Source of the DNA: Halorhodospira halophila SL1
GTDB lineage: Bacteria > Pseudomonadota > Gammaproteobacteria > Nitrococcales > Halorhodospiraceae
Direction: 5' to 3'
DNA length: 32,000 nucleotides
Assembly (NCBI RefSeq): GCF_000015585.1
Contig: NC_008789.1
Span: 840,001-872,000 of the forward strand
In this document: in pieces, positions 13,163-22,448 of the stretch
How positions within the stretch are numbered: the first letter of the stretch is position 1
Layout: each line of letters opens with the position of its first letter
Translations under genes and position numbers: made by a program
Notes under the pieces: model-generated
The model's database searches: none
The model's input: the letters and a program-made list of their open reading frames with translations, nothing else
Told to the model about the DNA's origin: nothing

Positions 13163-14263
13163 ATGTGCAGCAATGTTATTGTCTATTGTTCACACAGCGC
13201 AGCGTATACAAGCTCACCCCTTAATGAACATTACATCTATAGAAAATCACACTTCCCGAGAGAACAGCACTACTACATTGCTATTAATACATGCAAAGAA
13301 GAAAAGCGGTTTAAGAGCAACGAGAAATTCCGGATATTTGAATGCAAAGGAAACGATAAAAAACTCTTTGAAGCACTTGAAAATATAATCGATGCACACA
13401 CCCCTTCATCCAATATCATAATTCATAATCATGACCCAAAAGCGACAAAAAAAATCGCACATTTTATTAAAAAAAGACACCACAATATCCCTTTAGTGTA
13501 TACAATCCATAACTCCTATAACAAATTTAGTGCTCGGAAGAAATGCCTCACAAATCTATCCATCCTGCATAGTAGCAAATCCGTATTCTGCGGGCGCGCG
13601 GCTTATGAAGCATATCCTTATCGACATCTTTTTAAACAAAAAACAACATTCATACCGAACGGGGTTGATATAGATCGCATTGACTCTACTCTCAACCGCA
13701 GGGAAGGCACATCAAAGCCGAACGATTATCGTATAAAAGTGGCGACAATCGCGAAGAACAATGGGCAGAAAAACCTGCCACACCTACTGAAGTTAGCTAG
13801 CGAACTGCCAAAAGAAATGCATCTTAGTGTAATTGGCCCGCTTTCCGATGAAGACAAAAACAAAATCGAGTCTCTCGACACAAAGAACGTGAGGCACGTA
13901 GGTGTGCTTGAGCGCGACGAAGCACTCCTCGCATTGTCACAGAACGATATATTTGCCTCTTCTTCTTTTTACGAAGGCTTGCCTGTTGCGGTGCTTGAAG
14001 CTATGGCTATTGGATTGCCCGTAGTGCTATCACGTATCCCCCCTCATTTAGAGCTAAGCTCTAAGGGAGACGGACCCATTGTTGCTGAATGCGACCTCTC
14101 TCTCTGGAAACAAAAAATACGCGAACTGAACGAGCTGAAGCAACAAAAAAATAATGGGCTACAGGAGTTGGGCCAACTAAACCGCAAACTTGTGGAAGAG
14201 CACTTTAGCTTGGCAGCAATGCACAAAGCTTACAGTTCTGTTTATAAGGAATTACTCTATTAA
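13163..14263 (+). CDS. Glycosyltransferase family 4 (GT-B)
   Basis: The C-terminal EX7E region SSSFYEGLPVAVLEAMAIGLPVVLSRIPPHLEL is present. AT-rich. The ORF is open from TTG 13130; I chose ATG 13163, and the start is uncertain. Confidence 0.75.
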   Translation: MCSNVIVYCSHSAAYTSSPLNEHYIYRKSHFPREQHYYIAINTCKEEKRFKSNEKFRIFECKGNDKKLFEALENIIDAHTPSSNIIIHNHDPKATKKIAHFIKKRHHNIPLVYTIHNSYNKFSARKKCLTNLSILHSSKSVFCGRAAYEAYPYRHLFKQKTTFIPNGVDIDRIDSTLNRREGTSKPNDYRIKVATIAKNNGQKNLPHLLKLASELPKEMHLSVIGPLSDEDKNKIESLDTKNVRHVGVLERDEALLALSQNDIFASSSFYEGLPVAVLEAMAIGLPVVLSRIPPHLELSSKGDGPIVAECDLSLWKQKIRELNELKQQKNNGLQELGQLNRKLVEEHFSLAAMHKAYSSVYKELLY

Positions 14264-14279
14264 AAAGCATACTTTCGGT

Positions 14280-15035
14280 TTGACTTATGGGTGGCCTAAA
14301 ATTGAACAAAAACCTGTAACTGTTGATGTAGTCGGTTTTTCTGGCAGCGGAAAAACCATGTTAATTGATCTTTTAAAGAAAAAGTTTGAGCAGAATGGCT
14401 ATTTTGTCGATAGCTCGAGCCCTTACAAAGGAAAAACTGTTGATTCGCTTACATGCACAAGAGCGGCCAACGTTAATGTCTACCGCCTTTTACGTAGCTC
14501 CGCAACGCGGATCACCAAACCAGTTACTCTCTATGTAGCTATAGTTTTTTGGTTTTATTCAATATCCAGGCGTGTTTATCGTTTTAGGCATGCTTATAAC
14601 TTTGCATTGCGCGCATTGTCGCGCAGGACGCACAGCGGGAGAATAGTTCTAGAAGACACGCCCAGAACGTCAATTTTGCCGCTTTTTCTTCCACCTGTTG
14701 ATGGTCGTGGTTGGCGGGGAGGCATCCATCGATTATTGCATGCCGACTTTTTTCCCGATGCTATATTGGTAATTGACCTCCCGCCAGATTTAATGCGCAG
14801 CCGGGTTCTACAAAGAGAACGCCCTGGGGACAAGCACTCAGCGTTAGACGAATCAACATTTATCGATCTTGCAAATGCGTATAAGAAAAATATCAACACG
14901 TTAACTCGTTATCTTAAAAATAACACACGGACTACCGTTATTAAGATTGATGGCACACAAGATATTGAGGCCATCGCTAATAGTGCAGCTCAACAGGTAT
15001 TGTCTCGCTTGAGAAAAGCCGACAAAAACATTTGA
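14280..15035 (+). CDS. P-loop NTPase, kinase-like (family unresolved)
   Basis: Walker A VDVVGFSGSGKTMLIDLL is present. A later ILVIDLPPDLMRSRVLQRER resembles the lid region of small nucleotide/APS-type kinases, but I do not see the LDGDN motif of CysC. The ORF is open from TTG 14190, which would overlap the GT4 gene by 74 nt. TTG 14280 was chosen, and the start is uncertain. Confidence 0.55.
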   Translation: MTYGWPKIEQKPVTVDVVGFSGSGKTMLIDLLKKKFEQNGYFVDSSSPYKGKTVDSLTCTRAANVNVYRLLRSSATRITKPVTLYVAIVFWFYSISRRVYRFRHAYNFALRALSRRTHSGRIVLEDTPRTSILPLFLPPVDGRGWRGGIHRLLHADFFPDAILVIDLPPDLMRSRVLQRERPGDKHSALDESTFIDLANAYKKNINTLTRYLKNNTRTTVIKIDGTQDIEAIANSAAQQVLSRLRKADKNI

Positions 15036-18000: not shown

Positions 18001-18171
18001 ACCGGGCTGGTGACCCTCTACGGCGGCGCCAACTCGCACATGGCCATCCGCGCTGCGGAATTCGGTCTACCGGCCGCCATCGGCATTGGCGAGCAACGCT
18101 ACCGTGAATTGGCCCAAGCGCGAGTTGTCGAGCTTGCCCCGGCCAACGGCATCCTGCGGGTGGTCCGATGA
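15088..18171 (+). CDS. Three-part fusion: N-terminal nucleotidyltransferase-like domain + PPDK_N (ATP-grasp) domain + C-terminal PEP-utilizer phosphohistidine swivel domain; candidate L-glutamine kinase (Cj1418-like)
   Basis: The N-terminus (about 250 aa) has LIILGAGAPHRGDLPAAL and is paralogous to the 18803 gene. The middle has GTKAETLGRL...LVVRSSARSEDSFHHSNAGGYDSLLNV. The C-terminus has GLVTLYGGANSHMAIRAAEFGLPAAIG (His codon at 18037-18039). No TIM-barrel PEP/pyruvate domain is present. The start is either TTG 15088 or ATG 15103. Confidence 0.8.
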   Translation: MRAAPMVPQLTDYSTLIILGAGAPHRGDLPAALREPRSGTSVLQWLLDASGCSLECTTFVAGYQADAIRERYPDLAVVENRDWEHTGSGASLLAAPFGTNSPLLVCYSDILFRQTVPTALARCEADVAVAWDSAWDHRYAGREAADLARCEKVMVNGERIERLGADLPVDWADGEFIGLVRFSPRALEWLERLRADGPESLRQRHLSEYIEYLRAAGLSVAGVDVAGDWAEFNEPRDIAHFILGTKAETLGRLRGMVRHAVIQDQVVCTVAEWQADRAAVMDQVRQRFTGERLVVRSSARSEDSFHHSNAGGYDSLLNVDPRNGLEEAVEQVIASYGTADDDDQVLIQPMVTDVAMSGVAFTRTLEHGAPWYVVNYETAGDTEAITSGASGDHRTLLLRRGAEPETLPEPRLGPLVAALHEIEALLGYDALDVEFALDPAGSVHILQVRPIAVDRKGSDLDDSAFDAAMAAAHARWETLTPAPPHLPGDPAPLYGVMPDWNPAEIIGTAPGALAASLYRHLIMDETWAIQRAEYGYRDVRPAPLLVEFAGHPYVDVRASFASFLPAELPDDLAGRLLSFYLEWLRQRPELHDKVEFEVVPTCLAPGFEGWERRLQEDGGFSTDEVRALREGLRRITAGAFHRCEDDLAQIETLRQRFQAIEGDTRLAPLERARILLDDCRRLGTLPFSHLARSGFVAVTLLREAEACGMISATARESFLSTVRTVSHRLTADARATATGEMSEHAFIARYGHLRPGTYDITSPRYDADPERFLRPLVEHAREAAMEEENPGPWQAERAAFFSALAELGLPADPERVETFLRQAIEGREYAKFIFSRNLSAALEALAEAGAQYGLERAQVAHLPLDELLALRSAARSDEAIARHLRMRADEEAEARRVAGACELPPLITGQADLDAFVIGADRPNFIGSGCITADCLDLGDQPADADLDVSGRIVLIPQADPGYDWLFGQGITGLVTLYGGANSHMAIRAAEFGLPAAIGIGEQRYRELAQARVVELAPANGILRVVR

Positions 18172-18806
18172 GGCGCAGGGTTGCCGTCAGCCAGCGCTGC
18201 GATGCCGTGCCCGGGCGTGACGAGGTGCGCGACACCCTCGACGTGCGTTTGGCGACGCTGCTCTGGGATTTGGGGTTTCTGCCGGTTCCCATGGCCAGCC
18301 ACATCACCGATCGTGCTGCCTACTTTGAGGCCGTTGAGCCCGAGGCCGTGGTCCTTAGCGGCGGGAACAACATTGGCGAGGCCCCCGAGCGCGATCACTT
18401 AGAGATGGCCCTGCTTGATCACGCGGCCGCTTTTAGGCTGCCCGTAGTTGGGATCTGTCGCGGCATGCAGATGATGAACCACTACCAGGGTGGCGCCCTG
18501 CGGGCGGTCGCCAGGCATGTCGCGGTGCGCCACCGGGTCAGCGGCCCGCTGGCAGGGGCAGACCGCCGAGTGGTGAACAGCTACCACGACCAGGGCATGC
18601 TCGACGCCGACCTCGGTGACGACCTTGAGGCCATGGCCTGGTCCGAGGACGGCGCAGTGGAAGCGCTGCGCCACCGGGAGTGGCCGTGGCTCGGGATCAT
18701 GTGGCACCCGGAGCGCGACGCGCCCGTCGCTGAGTCTAACCGAAAGCTAATTCGAAACCACCTGGAAGGCCTACCTTTGGACCTTTCCCACGGAGAGACC
18801 TCATGA
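18168..18806 (+). CDS. Class-I glutamine amidotransferase-like hydrolase (peptidase C26 / PuuD-like); candidate gamma-glutamyl-phosphoramidate hydrolase (Cj1417-like)
   Basis: The nucleophile elbow VVGICRGMQMMN (Cys codon at 18456-18458) and GIMWHPER (His-Glu) are present. ATGA overlaps the upstream stop. Confidence 0.8.
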   Translation: MRRRVAVSQRCDAVPGRDEVRDTLDVRLATLLWDLGFLPVPMASHITDRAAYFEAVEPEAVVLSGGNNIGEAPERDHLEMALLDHAAAFRLPVVGICRGMQMMNHYQGGALRAVARHVAVRHRVSGPLAGADRRVVNSYHDQGMLDADLGDDLEAMAWSEDGAVEALRHREWPWLGIMWHPERDAPVAESNRKLIRNHLEGLPLDLSHGETS

Positions 18807-19552
18807 AAGCGATCATCCTGGCCGCTGGACAAGGTACCCGCCTGCGGCCCCTGACCGACGACAAGCCGAAGTGCCTCGTTGAGTTGGCGGGCAAATCCCT
18901 GCTCGACCACCAACTTGATGTGCTGCGCGCCGCCGGGGTCGATGACATCCACGTGGTCGCTGGCTACCGCGCCGATCAGCTGGAGCGACCCGGGTTCACC
19001 CGCCACATTAACGAGCGTTATGCCGAAACCAACATGGTCGGCACGCTCTTTGCTGCCGAGTCGGTGATGACTGGGGAGAGCGACCTGATTATTAGCTACG
19101 GCGACATCGTCTACGAGCCTCGGGTCCTGGCGGCGCTGCAAGCGGTGGACGCCCCGATCGGACTGGCGGTGGACCGCGAGTGGCGGCGCTACTGGGCGGC
19201 GCGCATGGACGACCCGCTGGCCGACGCCGAGACCCTGAAGCTCACCGATGGCGACCGGGTCGTGGAGTTGGGCAAGAAGCCGGAGGGCTACGCGGACATC
19301 CAGGGCCAGTACACCGGCCTCATCAAGGTCCGCGCCGACCATGTGCGACGGCTGCCCGAAGTCTGGCGCGCCATGGACCGGCACGCCACCTACGACGGCA
19401 AGGATTACGACAACATGTACATGACCAGCTTCATCCAGCACCTCATCGACATGGGCTGGGAAGCGCGCGCCGCCTTCATCGACAACGGCTGGGCGGAAGT
19501 GGACTGCGAGGCCGATCTCGCCGCAGCGACCGGGTTCTGGAGTGCGGGATAA
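18803..19552 (+). CDS. Sugar/phospho-X nucleotidyltransferase (LicC/cytidylyltransferase-like); candidate phosphoramidate cytidylyltransferase (Cj1416-like)
   Basis: MKAIILAAGQGTRLRPLTDDKPKCLVELAGKSLL is the canonical GxGxR signature, followed by YGDIVY. ATGA overlaps the upstream stop. Confidence 0.8.
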   Translation: MKAIILAAGQGTRLRPLTDDKPKCLVELAGKSLLDHQLDVLRAAGVDDIHVVAGYRADQLERPGFTRHINERYAETNMVGTLFAAESVMTGESDLIISYGDIVYEPRVLAALQAVDAPIGLAVDREWRRYWAARMDDPLADAETLKLTDGDRVVELGKKPEGYADIQGQYTGLIKVRADHVRRLPEVWRAMDRHATYDGKDYDNMYMTSFIQHLIDMGWEARAAFIDNGWAEVDCEADLAAATGFWSAG

Positions 19553-19582
19553 CGTGCTCAACCAACAATCAAAGGACACGCG

Positions 19583-21247
19583 ATGAGTCAAGCCGACACC
19601 GAGAACAAATTGCGTACCCGCTCTCCCGACGAGCTCTCTTTGCAGATGGAGGGACTCATTGCGCTCCGTGAGGTCCTCAGTGAGCACCTTGATCGTTGGT
19701 TTCTCAGCGGGGGAACGCTCCTCGGCGCTTATCGAGATGGCGACTTCATTCCATGGGATTGGGACGTTGAGGTGACGGTGCTTACCGAGGAAGCGCAACC
19801 GAAAGAGGGCGCACTTCTTAAAGCACTCCTCGAGGCCGGATTCACCATCACCTCATCCGATTCGTCGCATGAGAATTTTAAAATCGTCGCCTCCGGCTGG
19901 GGAACCGAGTACGAGATCCTCGGCCGGTACCTAGCCGAAGATGGCAACGGACGCATCCGGTTGATGACTGAAGTGCCCGCCCGCTTCTTTGAACAACATG
20001 AGCCTGTGACCTTTCGTGGGCACACCTTCCCCGCACCTAGCCCTACAGATGACTTTCTGGAAGCACTCTATGGAGACTGGCGAACACCGCTGAAGTCAGC
20101 CGATAAAAAGACCTACTTTTCTGGGACTGCATACCGCAAGAACACGCACTCTAGTCCTTCTGCGCGTACCGCCCAGATCCGCAAGCTGCTAGTCCCCGCA
20201 CAGGTGCGGGAGTTTCCTGAGGTTGGAAGGGCTGCCCTTGATCGCTTCCAGTCCTGGGATCAAGAACTGGGCTGGTGTAATCAGCCCAATGTCACGAAGG
20301 TCGATCAATCTGATCGATCGGCCGGCACCAAGAAAGACGCCCCCGGACTGGCCGTCTTCTCCACGGACGAGACGGGCTCCCGCAGTTGTCGCCACCCGAC
20401 CGAAAAACCAGATGTCAGCTGCTACGGCGACGGCTACTGCATGTGCCGGGACGTTCATGATCATGAGACCTTCCCTTGGTTCCTAGGCGACCGGAGGGGC
20501 ACCCGTGTCTCCAACTACGGCGTTGGCAACTACGGGCTTGACCAAGCCCTCCTCCGGCTGCGGCGAGACTACCGTAACGATCCGGCCGACACGGTCGTCC
20601 TTGCCGTCACCTCCATCACCATGGCGCGCTGTGTGTCCGTGTACCGACACTACCTAGAGCCCGGTAACCTCTTCGCGATCAAGCCACGGTTCCGGCTTTC
20701 CGAACAGGATGGATCACTGCAGACCGTTGATTACCCGCTCAACGACAAGCACGATCTCTTGAGGCTGGAAAAATATGCTGACTTCTTTCGCGGGAACGAC
20801 GAGCACTATAGCTTTTGGCGAAGGAGTCGAGTTAACTACTACACGCACCAATTACCAAAAAAGATCGGCGCTCGCTTTGGGGTCACTTCTTTACCCGCCC
20901 CTTACAAGACCTTTGAGTACGAGATTAGCTTCTGGCGGAGCCACGAGTGTTTATTTTTTGGGATGATGGGTTACTATCAGGCCTTGGCCGACAAACATGG
21001 GTTCCGGCCGATTTTTCTGCTCCAGCACCACAACCGAAGCCTTGAGTACCTGAAGGAACGACCGTCACACGAACTGCCCTGGGCCTCGGTACTGTCTAAG
21101 GCCGCGGACCACTTCCCGGGCATAACCTTCTTGGATGAAGCTAATATCTTTGCCGACTATCCGAATATTGACGAGCTGTACATAAGATCGCACCACTCTG
21201 CGCATGCGAATCGTATGATCGCCGATTATTTGAACAACTTTCTATGA
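19583..21247 (+). CDS. LicD-family phosphotransferase fused to a C-terminal SGNH/GDSL-like domain
   Basis: The N-terminus has FLSGGTLLGAYRDGDFIPWDWDVEVTV and FLEALYGDWRTP, which are LicD motifs. The C-terminus has SCYGDGYCMCRDVHDHETFPWFL...VSNYGVGNYGLDQALLRL and a terminal SHHSAHANRMIADYL, resembling SGNH blocks I, II and V with Gly where the block-I Ser is expected. AAAGGA lies 6 nt upstream of the ATG. Confidence 0.7.
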   Translation: MSQADTENKLRTRSPDELSLQMEGLIALREVLSEHLDRWFLSGGTLLGAYRDGDFIPWDWDVEVTVLTEEAQPKEGALLKALLEAGFTITSSDSSHENFKIVASGWGTEYEILGRYLAEDGNGRIRLMTEVPARFFEQHEPVTFRGHTFPAPSPTDDFLEALYGDWRTPLKSADKKTYFSGTAYRKNTHSSPSARTAQIRKLLVPAQVREFPEVGRAALDRFQSWDQELGWCNQPNVTKVDQSDRSAGTKKDAPGLAVFSTDETGSRSCRHPTEKPDVSCYGDGYCMCRDVHDHETFPWFLGDRRGTRVSNYGVGNYGLDQALLRLRRDYRNDPADTVVLAVTSITMARCVSVYRHYLEPGNLFAIKPRFRLSEQDGSLQTVDYPLNDKHDLLRLEKYADFFRGNDEHYSFWRRSRVNYYTHQLPKKIGARFGVTSLPAPYKTFEYEISFWRSHECLFFGMMGYYQALADKHGFRPIFLLQHHNRSLEYLKERPSHELPWASVLSKAADHFPGITFLDEANIFADYPNIDELYIRSHHSAHANRMIADYLNNFL

Positions 21248-22212
21248 CTTCAGAATCACCCAGCACTCCCAAAATCATCGTCCTTGGTACAACGTACTCT
21301 GGATCAGGCGCGGTCTATGACTATCTAGCCAACCGAGGGGACGGGTACGATCCACTCGCCGGGCACGAATACCTCCTCCCGCAGATACCTTATGGCCTGA
21401 TGTGTCTGCGCTCTGCAATAGGTGAATCGTTCCATCACGCTATAGCAGACCATGCCGTCAGGGCTTTTCTCTCCGTTACGGAACAACTGACACGCACAGG
21501 GACTCGGACTCGATATGGAAAGGGATATGGCGTACTCCTGCCGCGCTTCCTAGAGGAGGTTAGGCAGCTTGTGCACGATGCCACTGCCGCTGAATTCCCG
21601 TTACAGCTAGAATGGAGAAAAGCGGAAGAGACGCGGCTGAGGCGCACCGTCAATTGGGTGTTGGCCCGATTTCTCAGATACAGGTCACCCCCTGAGAACA
21701 CCTGGCTCCCGGTCCCTGAAAAGGAGTTCGTTCAACTTACGCAGCGTATGCACGACCGCCTCTTCGTGATGCCTTCAGGCACCTCGGCCAGTTTCACCCT
21801 TCTCAACCAGTCCGGCTCTGGCTGGAACCCGGTGGCGTCTACCGACTTTTTCTCACACAGAAAGGTCGTCCTGGTAACAAGAGACCCACGCGATCAGTTT
21901 GCCGAGTTGAAAACTTTTAAGCGTGCGCGTAACGTCGATGAGTTCGTCAAATGGTATCGTGCCATGCAACAGCGAATTGAGATCGAGCACCCGGATTTGC
22001 ACATTGTGCGCTTTGAAGATTTTGTTTTAGATCATCATGACGCCAAATCAAGCTTGTGCGTTTTTTCTGGGATTGAAGCAGATGTTCCAAGTTCATACTC
22101 GACCGAGATGTCAACTTTAAACATTTCAAAGTATCGACAAACGCTCTCCTCAGAAGAGATAGAAAAACTCGAAACGGAGCTTGGCCAGCACATCCGGGAA
22201 CGAGTTCAATGA
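21244..22212 (+). CDS. Sulfotransferase-fold protein
   Basis: KIIVLGTTYSGSGAVYDYL is 5'-PSB loop-like, VVLVTRDPRDQFAEL is 3'-PB-like, and IVRFEDFVLD is present. ATGA overlaps both neighbours. Confidence 0.65.
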   Translation: MTSESPSTPKIIVLGTTYSGSGAVYDYLANRGDGYDPLAGHEYLLPQIPYGLMCLRSAIGESFHHAIADHAVRAFLSVTEQLTRTGTRTRYGKGYGVLLPRFLEEVRQLVHDATAAEFPLQLEWRKAEETRLRRTVNWVLARFLRYRSPPENTWLPVPEKEFVQLTQRMHDRLFVMPSGTSASFTLLNQSGSGWNPVASTDFFSHRKVVLVTRDPRDQFAELKTFKRARNVDEFVKWYRAMQQRIEIEHPDLHIVRFEDFVLDHHDAKSSLCVFSGIEADVPSSYSTEMSTLNISKYRQTLSSEEIEKLETELGQHIRERVQ

Positions 22213-22448
22213 AGGTTCTATTCTTCATCGGCTCCCTCACCGGCGGTGGAGCCGAGTGCGTCACTGTTGGCCTAGCCAACTACCTCGTCCGGAACGGCCA
22301 CCAGGCCAGTCTCGTGACGATGCACAACACCGACCGGGACTTCTACATCCCCGATGACGGCGTTGGCCGGGTCTGCCTCAATCCCGCCGGCGAGAGCCTG
22401 GGCGTTGACAATTTAACCGCTAAGATGTCTGGGTTCAGGGCATTTTGA
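22209..22448 (+). pseudogene. 79-aa N-terminal stub of a GT4 glycosyltransferase
   Basis: MKVLFFIGSLTGGGAECVTVGLANYLVRNGHQASLV matches the start of GT4 enzymes. Compare PPIAFFVPSVIGGGAQRVFVTLANTLV in the 23762 gene. It stops after 79 codons, 1 nt before the next ATG. Confidence 0.6.

Follow-up and report, generated by a model that had tools for sequence, protein, structure and literature searches.

The fusion gene and its Gly284 codon

The stretch of Halorhodospira halophila SL1 DNA analyzed here (32,000 nucleotides, hereafter the window) contains a gene (P0001; Table 1) whose product joins an N-terminal LicD-type phosphotransferase domain to a C-terminal domain of the SGNH/GDSL fold, in which the position of the block-I nucleophile is occupied by a glycine, Gly284. 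The gene lies fourth in a run of five closely spaced genes, which overlap by ATGA at three of their junctions. The start of the frame is judged to be right because full-length homologs, which share 37-72% identity, align over 93-100% of the protein, and the AlphaFold2 (AF2) model of the full-length product has a predicted local distance difference test (pLDDT) score of 93.0 and a predicted template modeling (pTM) score of 0.90. An initial annotation had identified this LicD plus SGNH-fold architecture, which stands on a PF04991 match above cutoff for the first domain and on homologs, a family profile and an AF2 model for the second. The motifs quoted at that time, the LicD signature, YGDGY, NYGVGNYG and SHHSAHAN, are all present, with coordinates that were checked by translation.

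The G-D-G of the YGDGY motif lies at positions 20426-20434, and the interval within which the initial annotation had considered a point error, 20416-20442, contains the Gly284 codon. Contigs of depth 270, from a run that is possibly the source, show zero differences from the window over positions 18800-22300, and the contigs of a second sample show zero differences over 18800-22195. Raw RNA-seq reads from a separate study carrying the same species label cover the region in 30 of 30 bins, with 206 of 223 reads at least 99% identical to the window, and in the bin of the Gly284 codon (about 6x depth) no variant reached the listing threshold. With no variant in the contigs of either sample or in the RNA-seq reads, the GGC codon is therefore not an error. 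The fusion gene appears to be transcribed, and the strandedness of the reads over it is weak. The RNA-seq data listed two minor variants, which may be strain differences or errors: C>A at 21017, seen in 3 of 16 reads on one strand, and T>C at 21295, seen in 4 of 6 reads. In a sequencing run from a second isolate the Gly codon lies outside the covered part.

Table 1. Features of the LicD-SGNH fusion gene and of the neighboring genes, in window coordinates
Feature	Position	Strand	Basis or remarks
LicD-SGNH fusion gene, P0001	19583..21247	+	Open frame, 554 aa
LicD/FKRP-type phosphotransferase domain, aa ~15-190	19625..20152	+	Pfam PF04991; FKRP by sequence and fold
Metal-binding acidic motif D59-W-D61-V-E63	19757..19771	+	Aligns with FKRP D-Y-D-V-D; translation
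Linker with helix and EFP motif	20153..20239	+	Alignment; model helix 191-203
CgnD-like SGNH-fold domain, aa 220-554	20240..21244	+	AF2 model, VIA, Foldseek, Protein Atlas
Gly284 codon GGC, block-I nucleophile position (G-D-G; relatives G-D-S)	20432..20434	+	Translation
Block-II-like loop NYGVGNYGLDQ	20513..20545	+	N311, G318, D320 and Q321 invariant in 38 fused and 63 stand-alone proteins
EPGN...KPRF segment, candidate block III Asn362	20657..20692	+	K367 and R369 nearly invariant
Asp518, nearly invariant	21134..21136	+	37/38 fused, 62/63 stand-alone proteins
Block-V-like SHHSAHAN	21188..21211	+	H537 = aligned catalytic His
AAA_33 P-loop open reading frame (ORF)	14190..15035		Low GC (0.43), just upstream of the high-GC operon
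Nucleotidyltransferase-like N-terminus plus Cj1418-type glutamine kinase, 1027 aa	15088..18171	+	NF004508/PRK05849
Peptidase_C26/GATase protein	18168..18806	+	PF07722; start overlaps upstream gene (ATGA)
249-aa nucleotidyltransferase	18803..19552	+	Pfam NTP_transf_3, NTP_transferase; LicC 1jyk, E 3e-15
322-aa sulfotransferase-fold protein	21244..22212	+	PF13469, E 5.7e-5, below cutoff; start overlaps fusion stop (ATGA)

An SGNH-fold domain related to CgnD

Single-sequence searches of Pfam and the Protein Data Bank (PDB) gave no SGNH match in the C-terminal part, the curated SGNH models returned only NF047475 with 13.7 bits against a cutoff of 325, and PF13472 annotations are confined to more distantly related stand-alone proteins. 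The fold is established only through homologs and the structural model. In a large protein collection we found about 40 full-length fusions together with about 60 stand-alone proteins of about 400 aa, and an exhaustive search with residues 220-554 retrieved 1850 representatives at E ≤ 0.001. The AF2 model of these residues, built from a 143-row alignment (pLDDT 95.1, pTM 0.93), has CgnD (8a2n) as its top VIA match, with Z 20.1 over 235 residues and the runner-up at Z 14.2, and the best 50 VIA matches listed are all SGNH/GDSL or closely related esterase/acyltransferase structures (Z 20.1-10.1). Foldseek gave 43 matches to the domain model at E ≤ 0.001, the best of those listed being of the SGNH/GDSL type, and the Protein Atlas feature search returned SGNH/GDSL clusters at 0.97-0.98. 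The resemblance to the SGNH fold that had been proposed from the motifs alone is found, then, in both profile and structure searches.

The profile of the family aligns its G-D-S serine with the GDS serine of 4rsh and 7bxd, and its GGH-x-S segment with D-G-L-H-Y-S of 7bxd, and from this alignment to solved GDSL proteins position 284 is that of the nucleophile and H537 the catalytic His. The window protein, with G-D-G and Gly284, lacks the block-I Ser of the SGNH/GDSL superfamily; the glycine that the initial annotation had placed at the nucleophile position is confirmed by the family profile and by the GGC codon. The SHHSAHAN segment had been described as a block V in a DxxH context, of which the first part holds, as the segment carries the aligned catalytic His, and the second does not, as there is no Asp three residues before it: that residue is Ile534, the family as a whole lacks an Asp there, and the Y533-H537 loop contains no acidic residue in any fused member. 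The adjacent H538 is His in 36 of the 38 fused proteins that we aligned and is conserved mainly in the fused clade. The assignment of the block II and block III residues, including Asn362, to an oxyanion hole is based on motif order only.

CgnD is the SGNH-type leader peptidase of crocagin synthesis, with the triad Ser79/His328/Asp325 (PDB 8a2n; PMC10070186). The window domain matches it over model residues 3-335, N-terminal extension included, but the identity is only 16% and CgnD was not detected by the sequence profile. Unlike CgnD, the window domain has Gly for Ser and no Asp at the H-3 position, and CgnD is a soluble protein of a peptide natural-product pathway.

Recurrent loss of the nucleophile and the catalytic His

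Among about 220 sequences of stand-alone relatives, 182 read GDS and 8 read GES; the other rows of this motif scan are mis-hits or GNS/GGS forms that still contain the Ser, and no GDG was seen outside the fused clade. In the alignment, position 284 is Ser in 62 of 63 stand-alone rows (the remaining row, with Gly, comes from a fused-protein fragment), and position 537 is His in 61 of 63, with Tyr in the same fused fragment and a gap in one row. The 38 fused proteins present a different picture. Position 284 is Ser in 29 of them, Gly in 8 and Glu in 1, position 537 is His in 29, Tyr in 7, Phe in 1 and Asp in 1, and 13 of the 38 are without the Ser, the His or both. Nine fused homologs also read GDG. 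The homologs are thus not uniformly GDS, and the glycine is not the single-genome mutation that the initial annotation had considered.

In a maximum-likelihood tree (a quick IQ-TREE run with SH-aLRT support), well-supported branches force at least six Ser/Gly changes. In the DNA of the fused relatives the Ser codons are mostly AGC or AGT, one transition away from Gly, and the replacement codons are GGC, GGT and GGA for Gly and GAA, one step from GGA, for the single Glu. All of the Ser losses pass via Gly, even though a single base change could equally give Asn, Thr, Cys, Arg or Ile. Because the replacements are only Gly, or Glu reachable from Gly, this suggests that position 284 must stay small.

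The rest of the domain has been retained. When divergence of the SGNH domain is divided by that of LicD, the ratios are 1.37 (Gly-Gly pairs), 1.34 (Gly-Ser pairs) and 1.36 (Ser-Ser pairs); divergence ratios were used rather than dN/dS since the DNA pairs are 50-72% identical in protein and synonymous sites are saturated. We refer to 34 further positions, each conserved across 85% or more of the stand-alone proteins, as the core; P0001 keeps 33 of them, and core positions are kept at 88% in the fused proteins without Ser or His versus 94% in the others. K367 is present in 37 of 38 fused proteins, and N311, G318, D320 and Q321 are invariant also in those without Ser or His. By this pattern of conservation, the Ser-less domain is not decaying, and our reading is that the SGNH module would be catalytically silent but still under selection. 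Of the two possibilities that the initial annotation had left side by side, a non-catalytic module or another nucleophile, the first is favored, given that Ser and His are lost only in fusions, that the loss is recurrent, that divergence is unchanged and that the rest of the pocket is kept.

The N-terminal LicD domain

LicD enzymes are known to use CDP-choline, CDP-ribitol and CDP-glycerol as donors, and LicD proteins are otherwise single-domain or have other partners, FKRP having an N-terminal stem domain. The window protein matches PF04991 over residues 39-67 with 40.8 bits against a cutoff of 22.6 (E 3.5e-10), and its best solved relative by sequence is FKRP (6kaj, E 1.3e-5). A Foldseek search with the full-length model placed FKRP chains first (E 5e-8 to 1.7e-7, 150-188 columns, 21-27% identity), and it also found the nucleotidyltransferases LnuA and TM1012. 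The N-terminal 190 aa therefore resemble the LicD family and FKRP in the Pfam model, in the D-x-D-x-(D/E) metal site and in the fold of the catalytic domain, and the acidic motif is present as WDWDVE or WDWDIE in 35 of the 38 fused proteins. From both sequence and model the LicD part looks catalytically intact, and the chemistry to be expected is, as in the LicD family, that a phospho-substituent passes from a CDP-linked donor to a hydroxyl group of a sugar. It is the C-terminal SGNH domain that sets the window protein apart from known LicD proteins.

Two matches among the relatives of P0001 carry PF04230. In three fused proteins (P0037, P0041 and P0042) the acidic motif of LicD is replaced by unrelated residues and the SGNH domain retains its Ser, Asn and His, the mirror image of the window protein.

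Domain modularity and predicted topology

The linker between the two domains occupies the site at which stand-alone relatives have their N-terminal membrane helix; specifically, a hydrophobic N-terminus immediately precedes the EFP motif in 52 of 60 such proteins. In 131 anchored relatives the 15 residues after the helix contain on average 2.86 Lys or Arg residues versus 0.78 before it, a count that is biased by the short pre-helix segment, and by the positive-inside rule we infer that the stand-alone domain faces the cytoplasm. Such a predicted cytoplasmic location fits a fusion to the cytoplasmic LicD. The full-length pTM, taken as a score only, indicates that in the model the two domains form one rigid body.

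The fusion is one of several arrangements in which the two parts occur. In the same gene module, genes for LicD alone (186-243 aa, with 62-75% identity to the N-terminal domain) are found at the position of the fusion, and hence LicD does not need the SGNH domain. Split gene pairs exist in both orders, and at one locus (L033) an SGNH protein with an N-terminal hydrophobic helix is followed by LicD. At another (L061, 1078-2045) a LicD gene of 40% identity stands before a remnant, in a different frame, of the SGNH domain's last third. This remnant is, by eye, about three-quarters identical to the window sequence, the first 230 residues of the domain are missing, and the arrangement looks like a scar of recombination or deletion. 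A triple fusion of LicD, SGNH and sulfotransferase domains was not found among 104 matches to P0001. Members of the SGNH family are also fused to N-terminal tetratricopeptide repeats (TPR) in two proteins of 467 and 519 aa (P0054 and P0056), which parallel TPR-sulfotransferase-fold proteins beside a phosphoramidate cassette.

The operon and the probable LicD donor

The genes around the fusion (Table 1) suggest what its LicD domain might transfer. The 1027-aa protein at the head of the operon matches NF004508/PRK05849, which we take to stand for Cj1418, with 854 bits against a cutoff of 501, and it contains PPDK_N and PEP-utilizers domains. For the C26 protein the best model by far is that of the gamma-glutamyl-CDP-amidate hydrolase, NF045546 (E 1.3e-28), at 100 bits, which falls short of the cutoff of 250. 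The 249-aa transferase shares 34-46% identity with the transferase adjacent to the glutamine kinase in most other sampled genomes, and because of this relationship we consider it the candidate cytidylyltransferase of the pathway rather than a separate LicC. The set of kinase, C26 and transferase genes lies beside the fusion or its LicD-only form in the window, in Pelagibacter (L003) and in the metagenome loci L020, L025, L026 and L039, the last of which shares identical genes with a further Pelagibacter locus (L002).

In Campylobacter jejuni, glutamine, ATP and CTP are the starting materials from which Cj1415-Cj1418 produce CDP-phosphoramidate 3'-phosphate (PMC11800397), and Cj1421 and Cj1422 are required to place the phosphoramidate on the capsule (PMC11800397; PMC3907429). 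The window operon is like the C. jejuni O-methyl phosphoramidate pathway in having a Cj1418-type kinase, a C26 protein and a cytidylyltransferase. It differs in that the coupled operon is without an APS-type 3'-kinase, no PF01583 gene being present in it, and no methyltransferase was seen in the window. The only 3'-kinase candidate here is the AAA_33 ORF, which has no match to the APS-kinase model. The transferase candidates differ too, and in place of Cj1421/Cj1422 the window has the LicD-SGNH fusion and the sulfotransferase-fold protein. Because CDP-glutamine and CDP-amidate are the only CDP-linked compounds that the operon appears able to make, the LicD donor is likely CDP-amidate, unlike the known LicD donors, and the group added is probably phosphoramidate. 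No publication linking LicD with phosphoramidate or CDP-amidate was found in the literature searched.

The sulfotransferase-fold partner shares 40% identity (E 5e-83) with the gene that immediately follows the Pelagibacter fusion. Such a partner accompanies, mostly immediately downstream, 9 of the 11 fusion genes with room downstream versus 5 of 70 LicD-only loci, a comparison that is not a statistic since the loci are related to one another. It showed no BLAST similarity to the TPR-sulfotransferase genes beside another cassette.

A conserved marine module, found in Pelagibacter loci among others, occurs upstream of LicD, and in it an ABC exporter is followed by three proteins of about 345, 333 and 246 aa (L002, 609-5185; also L026 and L035-L039). 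These proteins have no significant match in Pfam or NCBIfam, and the 333-aa protein has a faint match to APH-like kinases (E 0.02).

Related phosphoramidate cassettes in other genomes

A stand-alone member of the SGNH family is found in one other cassette of this kind (L128; G202:C320, 3700-9236), in which genes for a glutamine kinase, a C26 protein, a nucleotidyltransferase and an APS-type kinase (PF01583, E 4e-34) are followed by a 410-aa SGNH protein with GDS, 39% identical to the window domain over 165 residues, whose start overlaps the stop of the kinase. Two GT4 genes come after it, and no LicD, sulfotransferase-fold gene or other transferase candidate is in view at this locus. True APS-kinase genes accompany the cassette in other genomes as well. 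None of the 12 other glutamine-kinase loci of the phylum sample has a family member, and the stand-alone members at L129, at L130 and on a Natrinema replicon, the sole match in the plasmid collection, lie in unrelated contexts.

Two further cassettes have other neighbors. At L147 (G262:C22, 1180-4807) adjacent paralogs of 559 and 632 aa, combining TPR with a sulfotransferase fold (PF13469), directly adjoin the transferase, C26 and glutamine-kinase genes, and they are candidates for phosphoramidate transferases that would use a PAPS-like donor. At L157 (G208:C1, 5976-11542) a 1015-aa glutamine kinase with the same extra N-terminal nucleotidyltransferase-like domain as the kinase of the window (41% identity) is followed by a C26 protein, a transferase and a TagF-like phosphotransferase of the CDP-glycerol type (PF04464), and no APS-type kinase was seen there.

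Genomic setting of the fusion gene

The window is a GC-mosaic island, with GC contents between 0.38 and 0.69, and the fusion gene was not found in 60 relatives searched. The glycan genes of the window are interrupted by transposase genes of the IS3, IS110 and DDE types, and the GC content of the fusion gene (0.57-0.61) is under that of its flanks (0.65-0.69). Horizontal acquisition fits the GC mosaic, the insertion sequence (IS) elements and the absence from those relatives. The host genome is a single 2.68-Mb contig on which two adjacent Photo_RC frames of 325 and 281 aa (G000:C1:1745631-1747289) resemble the L and M subunits of type-II reaction centers, and the host is probably an anoxygenic phototroph.

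The initial annotation did not recognize a fusion of LicD with this fold, and likewise no description of one was found in the literature searched. Homologs carry only the public names "LicD family protein" or "hypothetical protein". Both kinds of domain are known; what appears to be new is their fusion, the recurrent loss of Ser and His, and the link to the operon.

Proposed mechanism and alternative explanations

We put forward a hypothetical mechanism, to which we give about an even chance, in which the window protein is an active LicD carrying an SGNH pseudoenzyme module that keeps its pocket for binding or docking. The fusion would be a cytoplasmic two-domain enzyme of polysaccharide decoration, in which LicD would draw on a CDP-activated donor, attach its phospho-substituent to a sugar hydroxyl and release CMP. 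Translational coupling of its gene to those of the glutamine kinase, the gamma-glutamyl-CDP-amidate-hydrolase-like protein and the cytidylyltransferase would make cytidine diphosphoramidate the donor. We propose that the C-terminal domain is a member of a family of membrane-anchored SGNH serine enzymes and that, in the fusion, LicD replaces the membrane anchor. Because the nucleophile Ser is Gly in the window protein, classical covalent catalysis is impossible, and the old active-site pocket would hold a ligand without turnover, this being the acceptor, an anionic substituent of the acceptor, or the sulfotransferase-fold partner. A precedent for the use of an SGNH pocket in binding is provided by the CE2 esterases (2w9x and 2wao, Z 11-12), which share the fold and for which a deposited title says that the active site also binds carbohydrate non-catalytically. 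Unlike the window domain, the CE2 esterases are extracellular, act on plant cell walls, have a separate beta-sandwich domain, keep the Ser and show no link to a phosphotransferase.

Several observations weigh against this mechanism. Both Ser and His are kept in 25 of the 38 fused proteins, so that most relatives may have a functional enzyme in this domain, of which the window allele could simply be a knock-out. The divergence comparison uses protein identities among related sequences and no codon model. As to the donor, the hydrolase match lies under its curated cutoff, and several LicD-only loci of the same module have no glutamine kinase within 10 kb. In addition, the role of phosphoramidate transferase could equally well be played by the sulfotransferase-fold partner, which we regard as a rival since TPR-sulfotransferase-fold genes flank the pathway in another genome.

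The main rival explanation, which we consider possible but clearly less probable, is that the window gene is a natural knock-out allele of a bifunctional enzyme. The comparison here is with NeuA of group B Streptococcus and E. coli K1, a CMP-sialic acid synthetase with a C-terminal sialate O-acetylesterase that edits the decoration of a surface glycan (PMC8319020). The likeness is architectural only: both are cytoplasmic capsule-pathway enzymes that act on a CMP/CDP-linked substrate and have a C-terminal esterase-type domain, but in NeuA the N-terminus is a cytidylyltransferase and the esterase is active, whereas the window protein has an N-terminal LicD phosphotransferase. By analogy with that precedent, the Ser forms would edit the glycan or its precursor as a cytoplasmic esterase or amidase, Gly284 would switch this activity off, and the domain would be kept for the folding of LicD. 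Silencing would alter the surface structure, for example under phage pressure, and phosphoramidate decoration in C. jejuni is described as a phase-variable, phage-related trait. The large fraction of fused proteins with both Ser and His agrees with such an allele, as do the single transition from Ser AGC to Gly GGC and the location of the gene in a GC-mosaic island with IS elements and its absence from the 60 relatives. The Pelagibacter loci with the Ser form also encode, at a distance of two genes, an AT3-SGNH O-acyltransferase of a kind that is absent from the window. However, a role in folding only predicts drift of the active site, and yet P0001 retains all but one of the core residues, the four invariant loop residues persist in every fused protein without Ser or His, the divergence of the domain is not raised in the Gly forms, and among several one-base options the Ser was replaced only by Gly (and by Glu from Gly).

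A bolder proposal, unlikely in our estimation, concerns the history of the family as a whole. The CgnD-like SGNH family would be a working part of phosphoramidate decoration outside Campylobacter, LicD would have taken over the transfer after fusion, Ser and His would then have been lost repeatedly, and the pocket would be left reading the tetrahedral phosphoramidate. Specifically, a membrane-anchored, cytoplasm-facing Ser would handle the phosphoramidyl group through a Ser-phosphoramidate intermediate, or an amidase would trim a transferred phospho-glutamine. If this is true, LicD would be a phosphoramidate transferase, and the family would offer a natural series of one enzyme taking over the catalysis of another, in abundant marine bacteria including SAR11.

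It is improbable, too, that the domain is still catalytic without Ser284, either through water activated by His537/His538 or with Cys286/Cys288 as the nucleophile. The candidate groups are there, in that His537 is kept in P0001, His538 is shared by nearly all fused proteins, Cys288 is conserved to 90% or more among the fused proteins and the pocket residues are intact. Nonetheless, His537 is lost to Tyr or Phe in 8 fused proteins, 4 of which also have Gly, so that both residues are dispensable, and Cys288 and His538 are equally conserved in the Ser forms, with no sign of a change that compensates. We know of no SGNH enzyme that works without its Ser in either way.

Taken as the explanation of the window protein itself, phosphoramidyl handling by the SGNH family seems to us very improbable. 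Here the family would be the phosphoramidyl-handling enzyme of the non-Campylobacter cassettes, the Ser would have become dispensable once LicD took over after fusion, and the pocket would bind phosphoramidate. It has in its favor the L128 cassette, where the stand-alone member comes right after the kinase, C26, transferase and APS-type kinase genes with no rival transferase in view, the reaction of SGNH serines with organophosphorus compounds (PDB titles 1j00, 3dt6 and 3hp4), and the SGNH-fold transferases PatB and OatA, which act on glycans. This cassette is, however, the one verified case, and both the 12 glutamine-kinase loci without a family member and the stand-alone members in unrelated contexts speak against the idea. 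Lastly, GGC and AGC differ by one base, but the readings of Gly284 as a sequencing or assembly error and of the gene as a decaying pseudogene have next to no probability and were rejected, since the depth-270 contigs, the second sample and the RNA-seq reads of the other study agree on the Gly codon, nine homologs have the same Gly through three different Gly codons, and the frame is open, of full length and covered by RNA-seq reads throughout.

Implications for surface glycan decoration

LicD enzymes decorate surface glycans that decide recognition by phages, grazers and the immune system. Phosphoramidate chemistry has been characterized mainly in Campylobacter, according to the literature searched, and in the window a LicD is hard-wired to an esterase-fold domain within an apparent phosphoramidate-donor operon. 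The essence of the active LicD with a pseudoenzyme module that we propose is that Ser and His were lost repeatedly, only after fusion and with the pocket conserved, and that an enzyme domain would thereby have been re-used as a non-catalytic part. It should be noted that the label "LicD family protein" hides 60% of P0001 and that automatic calls of an SGNH esterase would be wrong for one third of such genes. With the module present in Pelagibacter and on many marine metagenome contigs, this decoration may be common in ocean bacteria.

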